In this document: positions 56,039 to 64,000 of the stretch, piece after piece | Position numbering within the stretch: the stretch's first letter is position 1 | How the letters are laid out: every line of letters begins with the position of its first letter | Assembly: GCA_963827475.1 (NCBI GenBank) | Contig: CAWHAZ010000005.1 | Coordinates: 832,001-896,000, forward strand | From: an uncultured Chloroflexia bacterium | GTDB taxonomy: Bacteria > Chloroflexota > Limnocylindria > QHBO01 | Reading direction: 5' to 3' | Length of the DNA: 64,000 bases | Position numbers and translations under genes: made by a program | The notes under the pieces: model-generated | Seen by the model: only the letters and a program-made list of their open reading frames with translations | What the model was told of the DNA's origin: nothing | The model's database searches: none

Positions 56039-57701
56039 TCAGACCTCGAGCACGATGGGCAGGATCATCGGTCGGCGGTGAGTCTTCTCGTAGAAGAAGC
56101 GGCTGAGCACGTCGTGGATCTTCGACTTCAGGTACCCCGGCTCCGCCCGCTGGCCCTCGCCGGTCTGCTCCAGCGCCTTGGCGAGGTGAGCGCGAGCCTC
56201 CTCCATCACCGGGTCGTCGGGGTCGGACAGGAAGCCGCGGCCGGTGAGGTCGGGGCCGCTCACGGGCCGTCCGGTGGCCGCGGCCACGGTCAGGGCCACG
56301 GTCACTACACCGTCCATGGCGAGCGCCCGCCGGTCACGGAGAATGACCCCGTCCACGCCGTCCACGGCGGCCAGGCCGTCCACCAGCACCGCGCCGGCCG
56401 GGACGCTGCCCGCGAGTCGGGCCCGCTGCCCGTCGAACTCGACCACCTGTCCATTCTGCAGGACGAAGATGCGGTCGACGGCCACCCCGGCCCCCTCGGC
56501 CAGCAGCGCATGCTGGACGAGCATCCGGTACTCGCCGTGGACCGGGATGAAGTGGCGCGGCTTGGCCAGGCCGAGCATGAGCTTGAGCTCCTCGCGCGAG
56601 CCGTGGCCCGAGACGTGGCAGTGGGTCATCGGCTCGTAGTGGACCATCGCGCCTTCCTTGAACAGGTTGTCGATGGTCCGCGCGACCGCCTCCTCGTTGC
56701 CGGGGATCGGCGAGGCGGACAGGATCACCGTGTCGCCGGGCACGATCGTGATGCTCCGGTGGTCGCGGTTGCTCATCCGGGTCAGCCCGGACATCGGCTC
56801 GCCCTGCGAGCCGGTGGTGACGACCATCAGTCGCGACGGGTCCAGTCGGTCGAGCTGGTCCTTGCGCACGACCGTGCCGTCGCGCCCATCGAGATAGCCC
56901 AGCTCGGTGGCGATGGCCGCGTTCTGCTCCATGCTCCGACCGATGAGCACGACCTTGCGGCCGTGCTCCGCGGCGGCATCGATGGCCTGTTGCACGCGAC
57001 CGATGTTCGACGCGAAGGTGGCCATGATGACCCGGCCTTGGGCGGCCCCGATCAGCTGGCGGAGCGACTCCCCGACCGTGGCCTCGGACAGCGTGTAGCC
57101 CTCGCGCTCGGCCCGCGTCGAGTCCGACAGGAGGAAGTCCACGCCCTGCTTCCCCCACTCGGCGATGAGGCCGAGATCGGCGCGCGTCCCGTCCGGTGGG
57201 GTGTGGTCGAACTTGAAGTCCCCGGTGTGGATGATCGTCCCCCGCTGATGGCGGATCGCGAACCCGACGCCGCCGGGAATGGAGTGGTTGACCCGGAACG
57301 GGGTGATCGCGGAACGCGCCGACCGTGAACTCGACCCCCGGCTCGACCTCGTGGAGGGTGGTCGAGCCGAGCAGCTTGTGCTCCTTGAGCTTGCCGGTGA
57401 CCAGGCCGATGGTCAGCTTGCTGGCGTAGATCGGGGTGCCGCTGATCCGGGGCAGGACGTACGGCAGGCCGCCGGTATGGTCCTCGTGGCCGTGGGTCAG
57501 GACGATGCCGCGGACCTGGTCGCGGTGCTCGGCGAGATAGGTCGCGTCGGGCACGACCAGGTCGATGCCGAGCATGTCCGGATCGGGGAAGGCGAGACCG
57601 CAGTCGACGACGACGATCTCGTCATCGGCCTCGATGGCGGTGATGTTCTTGCCGACCTCGCCGACCCCGCCCAGCGGGATGATGCGTAGGGTTCCTGGCA
57701 T
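56039..57701 (-). CDS. rnj: Ribonuclease J, frameshifts near 57315 and 57245
   Basis: PLGGVGEVGKN, THGHEDH, HTGDFK, FASNI.R, GSQGEP, HVSGHG, PVHGE, RRPMILP. Confidence 0.93.
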
Positions 57702-57724: not shown

Positions 57725-58420
57725 TCAGAAAAGTGTGAGTTGGTCGTCGTCCCGGGACGCCGGCAGCGGCGCCTCGGCGGGTGAGTCACCCGGCGAGTCA
57801 CCCGGCCCCACGGGCGTGATTCCCTGGTCTGCCCCCTCCGCCTGCTCGGCGGCGAGCGCCTCGCGCGCCTCCAGGAGCGCCGCCGGCAGCGCCGCGAAGT
57901 CTCGGGCCAGCGTCTCGCGCAGGGCCGTGGCCCGGAGCGCGGCAGCGGGATGGTACATCGGCAGCACAAACCGGCTGCCCGATCGGCGGAGGCGGCCGTG
58001 GACCTCCGAGATGCGCGCCCCGGGCAGGTAGCGCTGGAGCGAATACCGGCCGAGGGTCACGATCAGGACCGGGTCCAGCGCCCGCTCCTGGCGGTCGAGG
58101 TACGGGCCGCACGCGGCGATCTCGGTCGGCTCAGGGTCCCGGTTGCCGGGCGGGCGGCACTTCACCACGTTGGTGATGAACACGTCGCTCCGCCCCCAGC
58201 CGATCGAGCCGAGCATCTCCTCGAGGAGCTGTCCAGCGGCGCCCACGAACGGGCGGCCGGTGGCGTCTTCCCGCTGGCCGGGCCCCTCCCCAACGAGCAG
58301 GACGTCGCTGATCAGGTTCCCCTCCCCTGGAACGGCCAACGTGCGGCCGTTCGCCAGGGGACAGCGGGTACAGGCTCGCACCTCGGCCGCGACCGCGGCG
58401 AGATCGGCCTCCCCGCTCAT
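57725..58420 (-). CDS. Family 4 uracil-DNA glycosylase
   Basis: CTRC, VGEGPG, GRPFVG.AG, NVVKCRPP.NR, YHPAA. Confidence 0.92.
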   Translation of the reverse strand: MSGEADLAAVAAEVRACTRCPLANGRTLAVPGEGNLISDVLLVGEGPGQREDATGRPFVGAAGQLLEEMLGSIGWGRSDVFITNVVKCRPPGNRDPEPTEIAACGPYLDRQERALDPVLIVTLGRYSLQRYLPGARISEVHGRLRRSGSRFVLPMYHPAAALRATALRETLARDFAALPAALLEAREALAAEQAEGADQGITPVGPGDSPGDSPAEAPLPASRDDDQLTLF

Positions 58421-58436: not shown

Positions 58437-61070
58437 TTACGAGCGCTCCGCGTCCGACCCGGCCGCAGCCCCGACGCCGGAGTGGGCCATGTGCCGCTCC
58501 ATCGCCGCGCGCCGGCTGAGGTTGACGCGACCCATGCGGTCGATCTCGGTCACGACCACCATCAGCTCGTCGCCGATGGTCACGACGTCCTCGACGCGAG
58601 CCACCCGGTAGTCGGCCAGCTGGCTGATGTGGACCAGCCCCTCCTTGCCCGGCAGGATCTCGACGAAGGCCCCGAAGTTCATGATCCGGGTGACCTTGCC
58701 GAGGTACTCCTTGCCGACCTCGACGTCGCGGGTCAGGCCCTCGATCCAGCGGACCGCCTTCTCGGCGGCCTCGCCGTCCACGGCGGCAATCTGGATCGTG
58801 CCGTCGTCCTCGACGTTGATCTGGGTTCCGGTCTCGGCCGTGATCTGGCGGATCACCTTGCCGCCGGCGCCAATGACGTCGCGGATCTTGTCGACCGGGA
58901 TCTTCAGGGTCGTGATCCGTGGCGCGTACGGGCTCAGCTCCGAACGGCTGGCGCTGATGACCGAGGTCATCTTGTCCAGGATGAACAGTCGCGCGGTGCG
59001 CGCCTGCTCCAGGGCGTCGCGGAGGATCTCCGCCGTGATGCCGGCCACCTTGATGTCCATCTGGAGGGCGGTCACGCCCTCGGCCGTGCCGGCCACCTTG
59101 AAGTCCATGTCGCCGTACGCGTCTTCCTTGCCGGTGATATCGGTCAGGACCGCGTAGCGGTTGGTGTCCGGGTCGGTGATCAGGCCCATGGCCGCGCCGG
59201 CCACCGGGGCCGAGATCGGCACGCCGGCGTCCATCAGCGACAGGGTGCTGCCGCAGGTGCTCGCCATCGAGGTCGAGCCGTTGGACGACACCACCTCGCT
59301 GACGACGCGGATGACGTACGGGAACTCGTCAACCGAGGGCAGGACCGGCAGCAGCGCCCGCTCGGCGAGCGCGCCGTGGCCGATCTCTCGGCGGCCGGGG
59401 CCCCGCATCGGTCGTGACTCACCCACCGAGTACGGCGGGAAGTTGTAGTGGTGGAGGTACCGCTTCTCGGTCTCCGGCCCGATCGTGTCCAGGCGCTGGA
59501 CGTCGCTCGAGGGACCGAGGGTGGCGATGGACAGGGCCTGGGTCTGGCCGCGGGTGAACAGGCCCGAGCCGTGCGTCCGCGGCAGGACGCCGACCTCGAC
59601 CGAGATCGGTCGGATGGTCGTCGCGTCGCGGCCGTCGATCCGGATGTTCTCCGACAGGACGAGCTCGCGAGCGCCGGCCTTGGTCAGGACGTCCATCAGG
59701 GGCGAGCCGATGCCGTGGCGGCGGCGGACGTCCTCCAGGGCCTGTCCCTGCTCGGCGCGGTTGTACGCTTCCTTGCCCCGCCGAATTTCGGCCGCGATAT
59801 CGGCCCGGACAGCGTCCAGCCGCTCGATGAGGTTGCCGGTCAGGCTGATGAACAGCTCGGCGGTGGCCTCCGCGTCGGGCATGGCCCGGTGCGCAGCCGG
59901 ATGGTCCTTGCCGAAGATGAAGCGCATGAGGTCGGCCAGCTTGTAGCCGCCGGCATCGGGGTAGAGCTGGTAGGCCAGCTCGAGGGTGTCGTAGATCGCG
60001 CTGGGAGCCCACTCGACGTCATTCGGCAGATGGCGCAGCACGAACGGCAGGTCGAAGGCCACGTTGTGGGCCACCACCGGGGCGTTGCCGACCCACTCGA
60101 CGAACTTGGGGAGCACCTCGGCCGCGGTCGCGGCGGAGGACACGTCTTCATCGGTCAGGCCGTGGATCTGGTGACCGATGATCGAGCGACCGGGGTTGAC
60201 CAGCGACTCGAAGCGGTCGACCACTTCGCCGTCCCGCACGCGCAGGGCGGCGATGTCCACGATGTAGCCCTGCTCGGGCTTCATGGCCGTGGTCTCGACG
60301 TCGAGGATCACGAACTCGGCGCCCTTCTGGCTGAGGGCGCGGCCGAGCTTGACGATGGAGTCGGCCTTCGGGCCGATGAACGGCGAGCGCTTGGGCGTCC
60401 CGGAGTTGGCGACCAGCTTCTCCTGGATGTCGATCGACTTCTGGAGCTCGCTGTGGCCCCAGGTGATCGCGTCGAGCATGACCGCCTCGGGCAGGATCTT
60501 CGCCCCGGCCTCGACCATCATGATCGCGTCGCGGGTGCCGGCCACGACCAGGTCCATGTCGCTGTTTTCCAGCTGGCTGGTCGTCGGGTTGGCCACGAAC
60601 TGGCCGTCGACCCGGCCGACGCGGACGGCGCCCACGGGGCCGAGGAACGGGATGCTGCTCACGCTGAGCGCGGCCGAAGCGCCGTTCACGGCGAGGATGT
60701 CGGGGTCGTTCTCCTGGTCCGCGCTGAGGACGGTCAGGACGACCTGGACGTCGTTCTTGTAGCCCTTCGGGAACAGGGGGCGAATCGGCCGGTCCGTGAG
60801 GCGCATGGCCAGGATGGCCGCCTCCGACGGGCGCGACTCGCGCTTGATGAAGCCGCCGGGGATCTTGCCCGCGGCGTACATCCGCTCCTCGTAGTCGACG
60901 GTGAGCGGGAAGAAGTCGATCCCCTCCCGGGGCTCGGACGAGACGGCGGTGGCGAGCACGACCGTGTCGCCGTAGCGGAGCACGACGGCGCCGTCCGCCT
61001 GTTCGGCGAGCTTGCCCGTCTCCATGGACAGGGTCTGCCCGCCGATTTCAGTTTCAACCTTGATGGCCAA
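58437..61070 (-). CDS. pnp: Polynucleotide phosphorylase with inserted DEDDh exonuclease domain
   Basis: [52 protein letters not shown] and S1; extra domain at about 59841-60317. Confidence 0.95.
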
Positions 61071-61202
61071 GAGTTTCCTCCAATGTGGTGGTCCGCTCCG
61101 GCGCGGCAGACCCGGATCGGGTGGCGCGGCACGGACGGGGTGCGTCGCGAAGGACGCGAAATACGGGAATCCCGGCGGAGCCGGGTCAGTGGGTAGGTGA
61201 CG

Positions 61203-61472
61203 TTACCTTCGCAGGCCGAGTCGGCCGATGACCGCGCGATAGCGGTCCACGTCCGTGCGGACGAGGTAGGCCAGGAGTCGGCGGCGCTGCCCGACGAGCT
61301 TCAACAGCCCGCGGCGCGAGGCATTGTCGTTGGGATAGCTGCGGAGATGATCGGTCAATGACTTGATCCGCTCGGTCAGGAGCGCGATCTGCACCTCGGG
61401 CGAACCGGTGTCGCCGTCGTGGGTGGCGAAGTCATTGGCGACAGCGACCTTCGTTGCCGGGTCGAGCGGCAT
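61203..61472 (-). CDS. rpsO: 30S ribosomal protein S15
   Basis: [34 protein letters not shown]. Confidence 0.97.
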
Positions 61473-61513: not shown

Positions 61514-62447
61514 TCAGACGGCCACGTTGAGCGCGGCGCGGGCATCGGATTCGTCCCGTTTCATCTGCTCGATCAGATCGTCGACCGATGCAAATGTGCG
61601 TTCCTCGCGCAGGCGGGCCGCGACCTCAACCCGCAGCTCCTGGTCGTACAGGTCGCCGTCCCAGTCGAGGAGATGGGCCTCGAAGACAACGTCGCCATCG
61701 GTATGGAACACCGGACGTCGGCCGACGCTGATCAGCGCTGGTTGACCGATGGCCCAGCCGGCGTAGATGCCGAGCGCCGGCAGTGCGGGACGGTAGCCAA
61801 AGGCGAGGTTGGCGGTGGGATAGCCGAGCTCGCGGCCGCGACCGTCGCCACGGACCACGGTCCCGGTCACCGCCGACAGGCGACCGAGGAGCCGATGCGC
61901 GGTCTCCACGTCACCGTCGGCCAGGGCCTGGCGGATCCGGGACGAGGAGATCACGCCGTCGTCCGTCTCGGGCTCGACGAGCACGACCTCGAACCCGCGC
62001 TGGGCGCCAATCTCCGTCAACCGCTCCGGCGTACCGGCTCGGTCCTTCCCGAACGAGCTATCCGGGGTCATGAGCGATGGCAACGGGGCGTAGGCCAGGT
62101 CCCAACCGGTCGAGGAACACCTCGGGCGGCAAATCGCGGACGGCGGGGTCGAACCGCACGGCGAGGGGCTGGACGCCCACCGCCGCGATGTGCTCGAGGT
62201 TCTCTGCCAGCGGAGCAAGACGCTCCACGGTGCGGTCCGTGCGGATGACCTCGATCGGCGATGGGTCGAAGACGAGCGCCACCGGCTGGGCATCGCGGGC
62301 CGCGGCTGCCTCCCGGGTCGCCGAGAGGAGGTACCGATGTCCCCGATGCACTCCGTCGAAGACGCCGAGCGCGAGCGCGACCGGCCCGATCGACAGCTCG
62401 GCGACCTCGTCGAGGGCGAGGACGCGGTGGGTGATGGTGGCAGTCAT
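61514..62447 (-). CDS. ribF: Riboflavin kinase/FAD synthetase, frameshift(s) near 62070-62100
   Basis: GVFDGVHRGH, then FGKDRAG, ISSSRIR, GRELGYPTAN, EAHLLD, LREERTF. Confidence 0.92.
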
Positions 62448-63316
62448 CCGCCTTCGACCAGCACAGTCCGCGGATGGAGGCGGCCGTCCCGCAGCTCCCC
62501 GATCCCGAGCAGCCCGGACGGCCCGTGGACCTGGACCCGCCCCTCACCGAACCACGCCAGCTCTCCGCCGTGGGTGAATCGGCTCGCCTGGTCGGCGTCG
62601 AGGGTCACCGGCTGCAAGTCGAGCAGGCGCTCGACGGGAATGATTGCCACGTCCAGCCGCCCCTCGGTGGCCAACGACTCCAGCGCATCCGGCGTCCGCC
62701 CCTCGGTGGCGGTCAGTCCCGCGGCCTCCGTCCGGCGCAGGGCGTGGAGGTAGCCGCCGCAGCCCAGCTGCTCCCCGAGGTCCCGGGCCACCGAGCGCAC
62801 GTAGGTTCCCGGACCGGTCTCGAGGTCGAGGCGGACGTCGAGCCAGCCCTCGCCCTGAGTCGTGCCCAGCAGCCTGATCGCGTGGATCGTGACCTCTCGT
62901 GGCTCGAGCTCCAGCACCGATCCCCCGCGTGCGGCCTCGTAGGCGACCACACCGCCCGACTTGCGCGCGGAGTAGGCCGGCGGCCGTTGCGCGAACGTGC
63001 CGACGAACCCGGGGAGCACCTCCCGGACCGCGTCCTCGCCAGGCGGCTCGGTGCCGGGTTCGATCGGTCCCTCGCCGTCATCGGTCCGTGACCGGAATCC
63101 CAGGCGGACCACCGCGTCGTACCGCTTCCGGCCCCCGGTCAGCTCCTGGGACAGCCGGGTAGCGGGCCCGACCAGGATCGGCAGCACGCCTGATGCCAGT
63201 GGATCCAGGGTGCCGGCGTGCCCGATTCGGCGCAGCCCGGTCAGCCGTCGGACGAGGCCGACCATGTCGTGCGAGGTGGGACCGACCGGCTTGTCGAGGT
63301 TAATGACGCCGATCAT
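62444..63316 (-). CDS. truB: tRNA pseudouridine(55) synthase
   Basis: LDKPVGPTSHD, GHAGTLDPLASGVL, QRPPAYSA, GTYVRS. Confidence 0.96.
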   Translation of the reverse strand: MIGVINLDKPVGPTSHDMVGLVRRLTGLRRIGHAGTLDPLASGVLPILVGPATRLSQELTGGRKRYDAVVRLGFRSRTDDGEGPIEPGTEPPGEDAVREVLPGFVGTFAQRPPAYSARKSGGVVAYEAARGGSVLELEPREVTIHAIRLLGTTQGEGWLDVRLDLETGPGTYVRSVARDLGEQLGCGGYLHALRRTEAAGLTATEGRTPDALESLATEGRLDVAIIPVERLLDLQPVTLDADQASRFTHGGELAWFGEGRVQVHGPSGLLGIGELRDGRLHPRTVLVEGG

Positions 63317-64000
63317 CGGCGCGTTTCAGCTCCCGCTCGCACTCGGCGAGGACCTGCACCCGGGCGTCCGCAAGCGGCGCCGCGACCGTGCAGCCCGCCG
63401 CGCGGGCATGACCACCCCCGCCGAAGACCGATGCCACCGCCACCGCGTCGGCCACGTCCGTGGTGCGGATGCTGACCCGTGTGGCGTCGGGGCCGTGCTC
63501 CTTGAACAGCAGGACGATGTCCGCCTCCTTCGACAGGCTGAGGATGTCGATGAACCCCTCCGAAGCCTCCCGCGTGGCGCCGGTCTCGGTCAGCATGGCC
63601 TCGGTCATCGCGGCGTGGACGATGCGTCCTTCAGCGGCGAACCCCACCGTGCCCAGGATCCGGCCCCAGACCGCGATCGTGACGTTGGACTTCTCGGCGT
63701 AGATCTTGCGATTGATCTCCGACAGGGAGGCTCCGGCCTCGACCAGGGCGGCGGCCACCCGCAGGGTTCGCGGCGTGACGTTGGGGTGAGCGAAGGTGTG
63801 GGTGTCGTTCACCATGCCGGCCAGGAGGACCGTGGCCAGCTCCTGGTCCAGCTCGACGCCCAGGTCCGGTAGAAGCAGGGCGACCATCTCGCACGTCGAC
63901 GCGGCCTCGGCATCAACGTGGTTCACCGCGCCGAAGCCGGGATTGCTCACGTGGTGGTCGATGTTCACGATCCGCGCCCGCTCGAGCCATGCCCCATGGT
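63300..64000 (-). CDS. nrnA: DHH family phosphoesterase (NrnA-like), 5' partial
   Basis: NIDHH, ASTCE, GMVNDT and DHHA1 GGGGHARAAG; upstream of truB. Confidence 0.88.
   Translation of the reverse strand, partial: HGAWLERARIVNIDHHVSNPGFGAVNHVDAEAASTCEMVALLLPDLGVELDQELATVLLAGMVNDTHTFAHPNVTPRTLRVAAALVEAGASLSEINRKIYAEKSNVTIAVWGRILGTVGFAAEGRIVHAAMTEAMLTETGATREASEGFIDILSLSKEADIVLLFKEHGPDATRVSIRTTDVADAVAVASVFGGGGHARAAGCTVAAPLADARVQVLAECERELKRADDRRH

Follow-up and report, generated by a model that had tools for sequence, protein, structure and literature searches.

The pnp gene of an uncultured bacterium of the class Limnocylindria (phylum Chloroflexota) encodes a polynucleotide phosphorylase, PNPase, in which a unit of about 234 residues carrying a predicted DEDDh (DnaQ/PolC/DinG-like) 3'-5' exonuclease domain has taken the place of most of the all-alpha linker domain between the two RNase PH-like modules, PH1 and PH2. 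PNPase is among the most conserved and best studied enzymes of RNA decay, with a domain order that is regarded as invariable. The protein shares with canonical bacterial PNPases (5yjj, 3cdi, 4am3, 1e3h), whose linker is whole, the order PH1-PH2-KH-S1, the rpsO-pnp gene position and the phosphate-site and metal-site motifs, and the nearest solved PNPase chain matches it at an E value of 6e-227. No publication or characterised protein with the PNPase-DEDDh architecture was found in a search of the literature and databases, in line with an earlier reading of the DNA letters (hereafter called the sequence-only reading), which did not recognise the arrangement from characterised proteins. The architecture occurs in three families of the class, here numbered f1 (that of the source genome), f3 and f4; the sister families f2 and f5 have a plain pnp. 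The gene was found in the window, i.e. the whole stretch of 64,000 nucleotides that was analysed (contig CAWHAZ010000005.1 of assembly GCA_963827475.1, positions 832,001 to 896,000). The positions given below are those of the window, and all the features described are on its minus strand.

The pnp open reading frame (58437..61070) comprises 877 codons and is unbroken from a TTG start at 61070 to the stop codon at 58437-58439. All 5 loci of the same genus share the TTG start at this place in the alignment, and the first codon is GTG, TTG or ATG in 17 of 18 relatives, some f3 and f4 rows beginning within the ORF. In the 877-aa protein, Pfam identified RNase_PH and RNase_PH_C twice each, RNase_T, KH and S1, that is, a pair of RNase PH-like modules with KH and S1 after them, as in a PNPase, and the NCBIfam PNPase equivalog TIGR03591 matched with 981.9 bits (cut-off 525.05) in two stretches which flank the insert. 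PH1 (RNase_PH and RNase_PH_C, residues 1-227, 60390..61070) ends at a conserved 'GKPK'-type motif, with K227 at its end invariant in alignment A1. PH2, with the phosphorolytic centre, spans residues ~481-715 (58926..59630) and is followed by the KH domain (residues 720-777, 58740..58913) and the S1 domain (residues 783-854, 58509..58724), both identified with Pfam. The phosphate-site motif (residues 597-602) and the metal-site motif (residues 649-658) of PH2 do not vary among the 30 loci or in alignment A1, and align residue for residue with 5yjj; from work on the E. coli enzyme we take them to bind phosphate and metal, respectively. The gene for ribosomal protein S15, rpsO (61203..61472, TIGR00952, 118 bits), is directly upstream, and this canonical pair adjoins in 34 of 34 related loci examined. 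The claims of the sequence-only reading that an 877-aa PNPase lies in the normal rpsO-pnp position, with its PH2 catalytic motifs, KH and S1 intact, were thus borne out. The adjacency of pnp and udg4 was considered as a conserved DNA-repair link and rejected, as it is confined to the genus of the window (5 of 5 loci) and one f4 locus (L040), and is absent in the three f3 loci and the one f4 locus whose downstream sequence extends for 640 nt or more.

The predicted DEDDh domain itself lies between PH1 and PH2, at residues 250-410 (59841..60323); the interval 59841-60317 marked in the sequence-only reading corresponds, by arithmetic, to residues 252-410. The RNase_T profile (PF00929) matched residues 254-407 over its full length (positions 1-164 of 164, E 1.8e-23, 84.3 bits, cut-off 24), and the ExoI, ExoII and ExoIII motifs, which had been described as complete, were found after PH1 at residues 256-261, 334-340 and 393-400. 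The putative catalytic residues are D257 (60300-60302) and E259 (60294-60296) in ExoI, D340 (60051-60053) in ExoII, and H394 (59889-59891) and D399 (59874-59876) in ExoIII. A linker of residues 228-249 (60324..60389), not homologous to plain pnp, leads into the domain, and in alignment A1 its residue S238 is invariant and P230 and P234 are nearly so. The domain is followed by a segment of residues 411-457 (59700..59840), for which no family match was found and in which L414, R417, R449 and R450 are conserved, and then by a remnant of the PNPase all-alpha helical domain at residues 458-480 (59631..59699), corresponding to the last ~25 of the 81 positions of PF03726. This profile matched the window protein at positions 57-79 of 81 with 17.1 bits, below the cut-off of 24.6, so that a helical domain of a PNPase was not recovered as such; the score reaches 25.8 bits in the f3 relatives P0295 and P0300, and a precomputed PF03726 annotation is present for some relatives. 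The 'remnant helical domain' that had been noted after the insert therefore amounts to one terminal helix, which is detectable, and a segment of about 47 residues without detectable homology. Compared with the solved PNPase 5yjj, about 40 linker residues are replaced by about 200, and compared with the plain pnp of the sister families, about 75 residues are replaced by about 234.

The same architecture was recovered from independent collections and sequencing runs. In searches of two protein collections, RNase_T together with RNase_PH was present in 120 of 120 best matches of the first (467 matches at E ≤ 1e-3 among 4461 candidates) and in 120 of 120 of the second (852 at E ≤ 1e-10 among 8000 scored), i.e. 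in all 240 listed homologues. The insert was also present in single-contig genomes, e.g. G087 and G179. Public runs were consulted as Logan contigs only (four runs from three studies, X1 and X2 being one study). A DNA-run contig of 1080 nt (X4 record 29, 59424-60503) covers the insert and both junctions, another contig, from an RNA library (X2 record 14, 60291-60503, 0 differences), extends over the junction between PH1 and ExoI, and 30 of 30 depth bins were covered in 4 of 4 runs; such contigs show presence and bridging, not transcription level, and those from RNA libraries may contain DNA. The gap in reads across the junctions, which had been named as what would undo the finding, was thus not observed.

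The insert was found in 131 of 133 sampled genomes of f1, f3 and f4, the query matching in 64 of 66, 60 of 60 and 7 of 7 genomes, respectively, in frames of about 860-970 aa. The two f1 genomes without a match have no assembled middle of pnp (in G060 no match to pnp was found, and in G174 only the ends of pnp, at contig edges), and secondary loss of the insert was not found among the 66 f1 genomes. A query spanning the junction matched end to end in 33 of 33 sampled f1, f3 and f4 genomes, the source genome included, and with its PH1 part only, among the matches listed, in the other 268 Chloroflexota. The pnp was plain, with frames of 737-756 aa, in 4 of 4 f2 genomes and in the one f5 genome, and matches of the insert query in these families were to the N-terminal DEDD domain of DinG-type helicases; the insert was consequently rejected as a feature of the whole class. 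Four internal-DEDD matches (P0152, P0174, P0159 and P0244) were considered as further PNPase fusions, and none is a PNPase. A representative protein library gave 26558 matches at E ≤ 1e-3, of which no more than 20, for the most part fragments, reached E ≤ 1e-30; the matches listed included no full-length members of the family, probably because these are clustered under plain PNPase representatives. One homologue, with 77 % identity to the query region, is labelled as a 'Zixibacteria' MAG, which was taken as a binning label.

In 'quick' IQ-TREE runs with SH-aLRT support only, the inserts formed one clade (94), and in the tree of the PNPase core, rooted on 14 other Chloroflexota sequences, the insert-bearing proteins formed one clade (99) sister to the plain proteins of f2 and f5 (100). 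That the insert and the core each give one clade shows a single ancient gain. The tallies given here and below include unpublished genomes (insert query: G156, G084, G120, G093, G106, G091, G067, G112 and G151; junction query: G235, G331, G404, G443 and G356; DEDD count: G084 and G120). The PF13307 and RNB tallies probably sampled the same class genomes as the DEDD count, and the table of DEDD-DinG matches outside the class lists the unpublished G235. All conclusions stand without these genomes.

No substitution of D257, E259, D340, H394 or D399 was seen in any of the 30 loci, the 42 rows of alignment A1 or the 238 database proteins that cover the domain fully, so that the domain is neither missing from relatives nor stripped of its catalytic residues, the outcome that the sequence-only reading had regarded as damaging. 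The dN/dS ratios, estimated with a home-written Nei-Gojobori script on GC-rich genes, were 0.143 (f1), 0.437 (f3) and 0.085 (f4) for the insert and 0.075, 0.234 and 0.045, respectively, for PH2, the f3 values probably being inflated for all regions since dS appears saturated in that family. Identity of the window protein to f3 and f4 proteins is 37-45 % in the insert and 65-74 % in the core; the insert thus evolves faster, which indicates a looser constraint. The two catalytic centres show complete conservation and evolve under purifying selection, and a dual phosphorolytic and hydrolytic 3'-5' exonuclease, as proposed in the sequence-only reading, is the natural reading of this conservation. 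Judged from the residues, it is likely that both sites are active.

Among solved structures, the chain nearest to the insert is the PolC exonuclease 2p1j (E 8.6e-21), other near chains being PolC (including 9qpc), DnaQ epsilon and the DinG exonuclease 8zef (E 6.8e-12), and NCBIfam DinG models matched the insert at 1e-29 to 1e-33. The nearest proteins outside the family are PolC, DEDD-DinG, DEDD-BRCT and DEDD-UvrC-motif proteins. PolC, the closest solved relative, also has its DEDDh domain nested inside another domain (RNase_T in PHP), but its host is a replicative polymerase whose primer terminus the exonuclease proofreads, whereas the host here is a 3'-5' exonuclease in its own right. Both RNA and DNA serve as substrates of DEDDh enzymes, those of DinG type among them. 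Orn, a nanoRNase, and RNase T, a tRNA-end trimmer, share the DEDDh pentad and the 3'-5' polarity, and work as obligate homodimers forming the substrate site. Neither was present among the 10 solved chains at E ≤ 1e-5 or among the best 25 of 68 matching NCBIfam families, and the insert is not counted with them. These matches place the insert, as a predicted member, in the PolC/DnaQ/DinG branch of DEDDh enzymes; its kinship with DNA-side enzymes does not fix its sugar specificity. In the DEDD tree, the insert clade and the clade of DinG exonuclease domains from the class lie in an unresolved polytomy. A tree constrained to unite them was 22.9 lnL better than the quick free tree, and the union was not rejected in the AU test (p 0.78), a result that is only compatible with common descent of the insert from the DinG exonuclease of the class itself.

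The pnp insert is the sole match of PF00929 in the source genome, and exactly one DEDD domain was found in 36 of 40 f1 genomes (the source genome included) and 28 of 34 f3 genomes that were at least 90 % complete; f4 genomes keep an additional, free DEDD gene of about 206 aa. The DinG helicase domain PF13307 was found in 21 of 21 f2 genomes, where the DinG-type protein consists of RNase_T, DEAD and Helicase_C_2, and in the one f5 genome. It was found in 1 of 39 f1 genomes (a 107-aa fragment at a contig edge), 1 of 34 f3 genomes (a frame of 2041 aa) and none of 5 f4 genomes. It was not found anywhere in the source genome, and Pfam identified no helicase domain in the pnp protein, which is thus not a DinG itself. 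Outside the class, near-full-length matches to DEDD-DinG were present in more than 40 of 134 genomes. Presence of the insert is therefore complementary to that of the DEDD-DinG exonuclease-helicase, which f2, f5 and much of the phylum possess, the complementarity resting on essentially one event, i.e. one correlated gain and loss in one clade compared with its sister and not on independent repeats. DEDD-DinG (B. subtilis and S. aureus DinG; 8zef) carries an exonuclease of the same DEDDh branch on an ATPase with an XPD/DinG helicase body, whereas the carrier here is a phosphorolytic RNase ring with no helicase body.

We propose a bifunctional 3'-5' exonuclease in which the canonical PNPase core, with its PH1-PH2 ring and its KH and S1 entry cap, keeps its phosphorolytic site. 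Most of the all-alpha linker has been replaced by a two-metal DEDDh exonuclease, probably catalytically competent, which was gained a single time on the stem of f1, f3 and f4 and inherited vertically since. In solved PNPases the helical domain occupies the face opposite S1/KH and lines a side pore to the active site, according to PMC2723993, so that three hydrolytic modules would be exposed there in a trimer, a position which we infer from published structures and the topology. DinG's role as an exonuclease would in this way have moved onto PNPase, a new carrier that already binds single-stranded 3' ends of RNA and DNA, and PNPase would also have gained a phosphate-independent hydrolytic activity in a class without RNase R/II. 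The insert apparently stands in for a lost repair nuclease. That its substrate range is DinG-like is proposed tentatively, at somewhat less than an even chance. The paper on DinG names PNPase as another 3'-5' exonuclease for 3' tails and reports degradation of ssRNA by S. aureus DinG with Mg2+ and by B. subtilis DinG with Mn2+ (PMC12525004), so the DinG branch of DEDDh enzymes can cut RNA; ssDNA exonuclease and DNA-repair roles of PNPase are described in PMC2709576, PMC3241651 and PMC5379764. Of the two roles suggested in the sequence-only reading, trimming of DNA ends is supported indirectly by the distribution of the insert, complementary to that of DEDD-DinG, with the substrate itself conjectural. 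The finishing of nanoRNA at the exit side gains no specific support, given the PolC/DnaQ/DinG affinity and an NrnA-like gene in the same gene cluster.

A more specific and rather speculative version, which we consider unlikely as it stands, is that PNPase-DEDDh works as one trimeric machine that removes RNA-DNA hybrids and stalled 3' ends where replication and transcription come into conflict. In it, the free RNA 3' tail would be captured and phosphorolysed by the KH/S1 cap and PH ring, and three DinG-derived hydrolytic modules on the opposite face would degrade ssDNA 3' tails or the RNA strand held within the hybrid, a ring-nuclease thus taking the place of the helicase-nuclease DinG. Such a machine would be a bacterial counterpart of the PH ring and DEDD nuclease of the eukaryotic exosome, with both chemistries active in one polypeptide.

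Alternatively, the insert may serve RNA only, as a hydrolytic partner in RNA decay that finishes nanoRNA, or removes stalling 3' nucleotides or structures independently of phosphate, and so offsets the missing RNase R/II. PNPase is the only large 3'-5' exoribonuclease found in the source genome, where neither an RNB (RNase R/II) domain nor an RNase D/PolA-type exonuclease domain was found, the phosphorolytic and DEDDh sites are both conserved, and the module would lie beside the pore leading to the phosphorolytic site (PMC2723993); the ssRNA degradation reported in PMC12525004 also favours such a role. RNB was, however, found in 0 of 101 class genomes, those with plain pnp included, and f2 and f5 manage without the insert; a gap common to the whole class does not explain an insert in only one subclade, and the absence of RNB was rejected as its reason. 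The NrnA-like gene, of DHH-DHHA1 type, and a second DHH protein make it probable that a separate enzyme handles nanoRNA turnover, Orn and RNase T are not close relatives of the insert, and the disappearance of DinG from precisely the insert-bearing clade would be left unexplained. A purely RNA-directed function is possible but doubtful.

The insert could also be a general-purpose enzyme, the sole DEDDh nuclease of streamlined genomes of about 1-3 Mb, trimming 3' ends of DNA and RNA with no dedicated pathway, and fused to PNPase mainly to secure the high expression of a housekeeping operon. The single DEDD domain in most genomes, their small size (1.0-3.8 Mb) and the rpsO-pnp position kept in all 34 loci would fit this. 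Yet the precise insertion point and linker residues (S238, R449, R450 and others) have been kept over deep divergence, which suggests that the domain and the ring are functionally coupled and not just expressed together, and a separate small gene, such as the free one that f4 does keep, would be a simpler route to co-expression. We therefore hold this explanation to be improbable. A further explanation would have the DEDDh fold replace the helical domain as a nucleic-acid-binding, regulatory or protein-docking surface, without hydrolysis; the replaced domain influences activity of PNPase and access to its active site (PMC2723993), and the insert is less constrained than the core. Against this, the pentad is invariant in all the loci and all the fully covered proteins, across lineages that are 37-45 % identical in the domain. 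Pseudo-enzymes normally lose their catalytic residues, and a non-catalytic module is very unlikely. A chimeric assembly, or a neighbouring gene fused by a frameshift, might be suspected from apparent indel errors in neighbouring genes of the same assembly and a 1-nt difference from all four runs at 61095, but has practically no probability given the 240 proteins of independent collections, the single-contig genomes and the bridging contigs from four runs of three studies.

The eukaryotic RNA exosome combines an Exo9 PH-like ring with the DEDD-family nuclease Rrp6 and the RNB-family nuclease Rrp44. It resembles PNPase-DEDDh in having a ring of PH domains that channels 3' ends, an S1/KH cap and hydrolytic exonucleases that include one from the DEDD superfamily. 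It differs in that its ring is catalytically dead and its nucleases are separate subunits, whereas here the phosphorolytic residues are intact and the DEDDh domain is in the same polypeptide; the DEDD nuclease of the exosome is moreover of the DEDDy (RNase D-like) type, and the insert of the DEDDh (DnaQ-like) type. The parallel would be one of analogy, not of homology of arrangement.

In public records these proteins go under the name of plain PNPase or of 'DNA polymerase III epsilon subunit family exonuclease', and the finding matters for their annotation. It provides a natural PNPase that has exchanged most of its helical domain, a part still poorly understood, for a predicted second exonuclease of different chemistry, and this architecture has been kept throughout one subclade of a lineage that is abundant in soil, rhizosphere and fresh water. 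Should both sites be active, the enzyme would be a ready-made system to probe the ring face opposite the S1/KH cap and the side pore, and a bacterial analogue of the PH ring with hydrolytic nuclease. It would also represent a nuclease domain that changed its carrier, from a helicase to an RNase ring, with the old carrier lost, and would be relevant to the part, still under debate, that PNPase plays in DNA repair and R-loop metabolism.

The window's pnp gene (58437-61070, minus strand), with rpsO directly upstream, is a single unbroken open reading frame of 877 codons with a TTG start. The predicted protein contains two RNase_PH and two RNase_PH_C domains, a KH domain (residues 720-777) and an S1 domain (residues 783-854), all identified with Pfam, and scores 981.9 bits against the NCBIfam PNPase equivalog (cut-off 525) in two stretches on either side of an insert. 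An RNase_T/DEDD exonuclease domain, matched over the entire Pfam profile (positions 1-164 of 164, E 1.8e-23), is located at residues 254-407, after the first PH module and before the second. The sequence-only reading had placed an in-frame DEDDh domain at window positions 59841-60317, which correspond to residues 252-410, and the ExoI, ExoII and ExoIII motifs that it quoted were located at residues 256-261, 334-340 and 393-400. Because the open reading frame, the Pfam domains, the equivalog score, the motif positions and the position of rpsO agree, its description of a PNPase with a DEDDh domain between the PH modules was correct as written.

In an alignment with the solved PNPase 5yjj, residues 6-256 and 459-855 corresponded to chain residues 21-272 and 313-707, and therefore approximately 40 linker residues have been exchanged for approximately 200. 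Compared with plain pnp from f2 and f5, sister families in the class Limnocylindria, homology extends to the conserved K227 and picks up again near residue 462, with approximately 234 residues present where the plain gene has approximately 75. The last 25 or so of the 81 positions of the helical domain PF03726 are alone still detectable in the window PNPase, as a match at residues 458-480 of 17.1 bits, which is under the cut-off; two relatives in family f3 score 25.8 bits. No family match was obtained for residues 411-457, within which L414, R417, R449 and R450 are invariant, and K227, P230, P234 and S238 in the N-terminal linker are invariant or near-invariant. The joints are therefore, judged from this conservation, not free-evolving spacers.

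An artefactual origin of the fusion is excluded. RNase_T and RNase_PH occurred together in all of the best 120 of 467 matches from a collection of 5.8 billion proteins, mostly 860-890 amino acids long and derived from NCBI, ENA and JGI assemblies. A second search, with the most divergent member as query, gave 852 matches at E ≤ 1e-10, the best 120 of which share the same architecture. The pnp stretch was present at least in part in 20 public sequencing runs from 14 studies, and none of the 30 depth bins was empty in any of the four runs examined, two RNA-library and two DNA (X1 to X4, X1 and X2 being from the same rhizosphere study). Continuity over both junctions, which the sequence-only reading had proposed as a check, was confirmed by a DNA contig of 1080 nt (X4, record 29) spanning the insert and both junctions. 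A contig from an RNA library (X2, record 14) reads through the PH1-ExoI junction without a difference, and the insert and C-terminal junction are tiled by records 19, 21 and 22 of X3. As these data are contigs, they demonstrate presence and continuity, not expression level.

Among 201 genomes of the class, some of the tallies taking in unpublished genomes from which no sequence was used, the insert was matched in 64 of 66 genomes of f1 (the family of the window's genome, G000), 60 of 60 of f3 and 7 of 7 of f4, always in frames of approximately 860-970 amino acids. The two f1 genomes without a match have either no assembled pnp (G060) or only the ends of pnp, at the edges of contigs (G174). With residues 120-420 as a junction-spanning query, full-length matches were obtained in all 33 of the f1, f3 and f4 genomes sampled, G000 included, in a sample without f2 and f5. 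In the other 268 Chloroflexota genomes the best matches, among those listed (a further 484 were weaker), ended at query position 109-202, so that mainly the PH1 part was covered. Plain pnp was found in all five f2 and f5 genomes checked (four f2, one f5), in which the DEDD domain is elsewhere in the genome, in a DinG-type exonuclease-helicase with RNase_T, DEAD and Helicase_C_2 domains (Pfam). The source names of family proteins in both protein searches were 'Candidatus Limnocylindria', 'Limnocylindrales' and 'Limnocylindrus' (Chloroflexota).

The solved chains nearest to the insert were PolC exonuclease domains (2p1j, 8.6e-21; 9qpc), followed by DnaQ epsilon, Staphylococcus aureus DinG (8zef), ExoX and Cas2-DEDDh; no solved chain of Orn or RNase T matched at E ≤ 1e-5. 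The top NCBIfam exonuclease models were DEDD-domain proteins of the PRK07883 group, PolC and DinG. Among 1.84 billion representatives, the closest proteins outside the family were PolC, DEDD-DinG, DEDD-BRCT and a triple-DEDD protein with a UvrC-type motif, and no PNPase was among them. Several near relatives have an unusual architecture with more than one DEDD domain (P0128, P0131, P0125 and P0137): P0128 (1045 amino acids) has three tandem RNase_T domains and a UvrC-type motif, P0131 (1631 amino acids) is a PolC with two RNase_T domains, and double-DEDD-BRCT proteins are also found.

The pnp inserts grouped as one clade (SH-aLRT 94) in a phylogeny of 98 DEDD domains, with six database fragments of the PNPase-DEDDh family nested among them. 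In a PNPase-core tree, from which the insert columns had been removed, the 15 insert-bearing sequences likewise formed one clade (support 99), sister to four plain f2 and f5 sequences (100), and the class as a whole held together (94) to the exclusion of the 14 Chloroflexota sequences used as outgroup. The insert and core trees share an internal pattern, in which f1 stands by itself and f4 falls within f3. By these trees, the insert was gained once and descended vertically afterwards.

The five catalytic residues of the exonuclease (D257, E259, D340, H394 and D399) are kept in relatives: none varies in the 30 loci compared (f1, 6 with the window counted; f3, 18; f4, 6), in any of the 42 rows of alignment A1 or in 238 of 238 database proteins with full domain coverage, a count outside which stand 2 of 240 proteins with partial domain matches only. 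The phosphate-site and metal-site motifs of PNPase are likewise invariant (30 loci, A1). Identity to the window's protein is 45 % (f3) and 37 % (f4) in the exonuclease domain and 65-74 % in the PH and KH-S1 regions. The dN/dS ratios (Nei-Gojobori) were 0.143 (f1, 15 pairs), 0.437 (f3, 153 pairs) and 0.085 (f4, 11 pairs) for the insert and 0.075, 0.234 and 0.045, respectively, for PH2, the f3 dS values appearing saturated. By these measures both the DEDDh and the phosphorolytic centre are thus under purifying selection, and we infer that both are active.

In the genome G000 (1.92 Mb, 90 % complete) pnp is present once, and the sole PF00929 match is the domain inside it. No DinG helicase, RNB or RNase D/PolA-type 3'-5' exonuclease domain was found in G000. 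Two DHH proteins are encoded there, including an NrnA-like one whose gene lies in the same cluster as pnp. Within the class, counts were made in 101 genomes with a completeness of 90 % or more. A single DEDD domain was present in 36 of 40 f1 (G000 included), 28 of 34 f3, 16 of 21 f2 and 1 of 1 f5 genomes; in f4, an additional unfused copy of approximately 206 amino acids occurs in 4 of 5 genomes. This second, free-standing gene of the very small f4 genomes (approximately 1.0-1.4 Mb, Ca. Limnocylindrus) encodes approximately 206-246 amino acids (e.g. G011:C2:301392-301853 and G104:C8:8005-8472) and stands apart on a long branch of its own among the DEDD domains of the tree. RNB (RNase R/II) was found in 0 of the 101 genomes, so it does not separate insert-bearing from plain-pnp families. 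The 3'-5' exoribonuclease set is unusually small, with no RNB found in these class genomes and also no RNase D/PolA-type domain in G000.

The DinG helicase domain was present in 21 of 21 f2 genomes and the single f5 genome, and in 1 of 39 f1 (a 107-aa contig-edge piece), 1 of 34 f3 and 0 of 5 f4 genomes. The f3 case is a 2041-aa open frame (G086:C10:19756-22632) with a Helicase_C_2 match and a weak RNase_T match, the usual DinG fusion being approximately 900 amino acids. Of 134 genomes from outside the class, more than 40 gave near-full-length DEDD-DinG matches, so the DEDD-DinG fusion is likely the ancestral state. A clade of the pnp inserts and the class's own DinG exonuclease domains, a grouping named before the test, was not rejected by the AU test (p 0.78), and the constrained tree was 22.9 lnL units better than a quick free tree. 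This result is compatible with, and does not prove, a history in which the DinG exonuclease moved into pnp and dinG was later lost.

Several neighbouring genes on the minus strand are irregular. RNase J (56039-57701) is split over two frames, 56334-57701, matching RNase J models over its first approximately 120 residues only, and 56039-57142, with the beta-CASP, RMMBL and C-terminal domains; either the gene is frameshifted or the assembly has an indel error. The ribF gene (61514-62447) is split likewise into FAD_syn (62058-62447) and flavokinase (61514-62293) parts, which overlap in different frames. Between truB and infB, the NrnA-like DHH-DHHA1 gene (63300-64000 and beyond; L066:988-1764 at its locus) reads as only 258 amino acids; since its DHH match begins at position 42 of the profile, the N-terminus is apparently truncated or displaced. 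Together these three genes suggest indel errors in the 7-contig assembly, which may be the cause of the 90 % completeness of G000. One base at 61095, in the rpsO-pnp intergenic leader outside the ORF, is absent from all four public runs, which probably reflects either an indel in the assembly or variation between strains. A family-4 uracil-DNA glycosylase gene (57725-58420) starts 16 nt past the pnp stop, an adjacency shared by all five same-genus loci and one f4 locus and absent in f3 loci with enough downstream sequence.

PNPase-DEDDh sequences sit in public databases under ordinary names, and no description of a PNPase-DEDD fusion, Limnocylindria and Chloroflexi included, was found in literature covering few subscription journals. 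Both parts belong to well-known families; their combination and placement are new.

One rival reading is an RNA-only helper, which would finish oligonucleotides or trim independently of phosphate, and another is a general-purpose sole DEDDh nuclease. A purely structural role of the insert is unlikely because the catalytic pentad is invariant. In published structures (PMC2723993), the helical domain of PNPase is placed on the torus face opposite the S1/KH cap and described as dynamic, influencing activity and lining a pore that is a second route into the active site; general PNPase architecture is also covered in 10.64898/2026.09.06.749684. By topology, a trimer would hold three DEDDh modules on the face opposite the cap. 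According to the respective papers, PNPase has been suggested by authors as another 3'-5' exonuclease on DNA 3' tails (PMC12525004), degrades ssDNA and has a part in DNA repair (PMC2709576, PMC3241651, PMC5379764), and the human enzyme is linked with R-loop processing (PMC10362022). In view of these roles, the favoured reading is that a predicted DinG-type hydrolytic activity would in these bacteria now be carried by PNPase, which serves as its platform for binding 3' ends.
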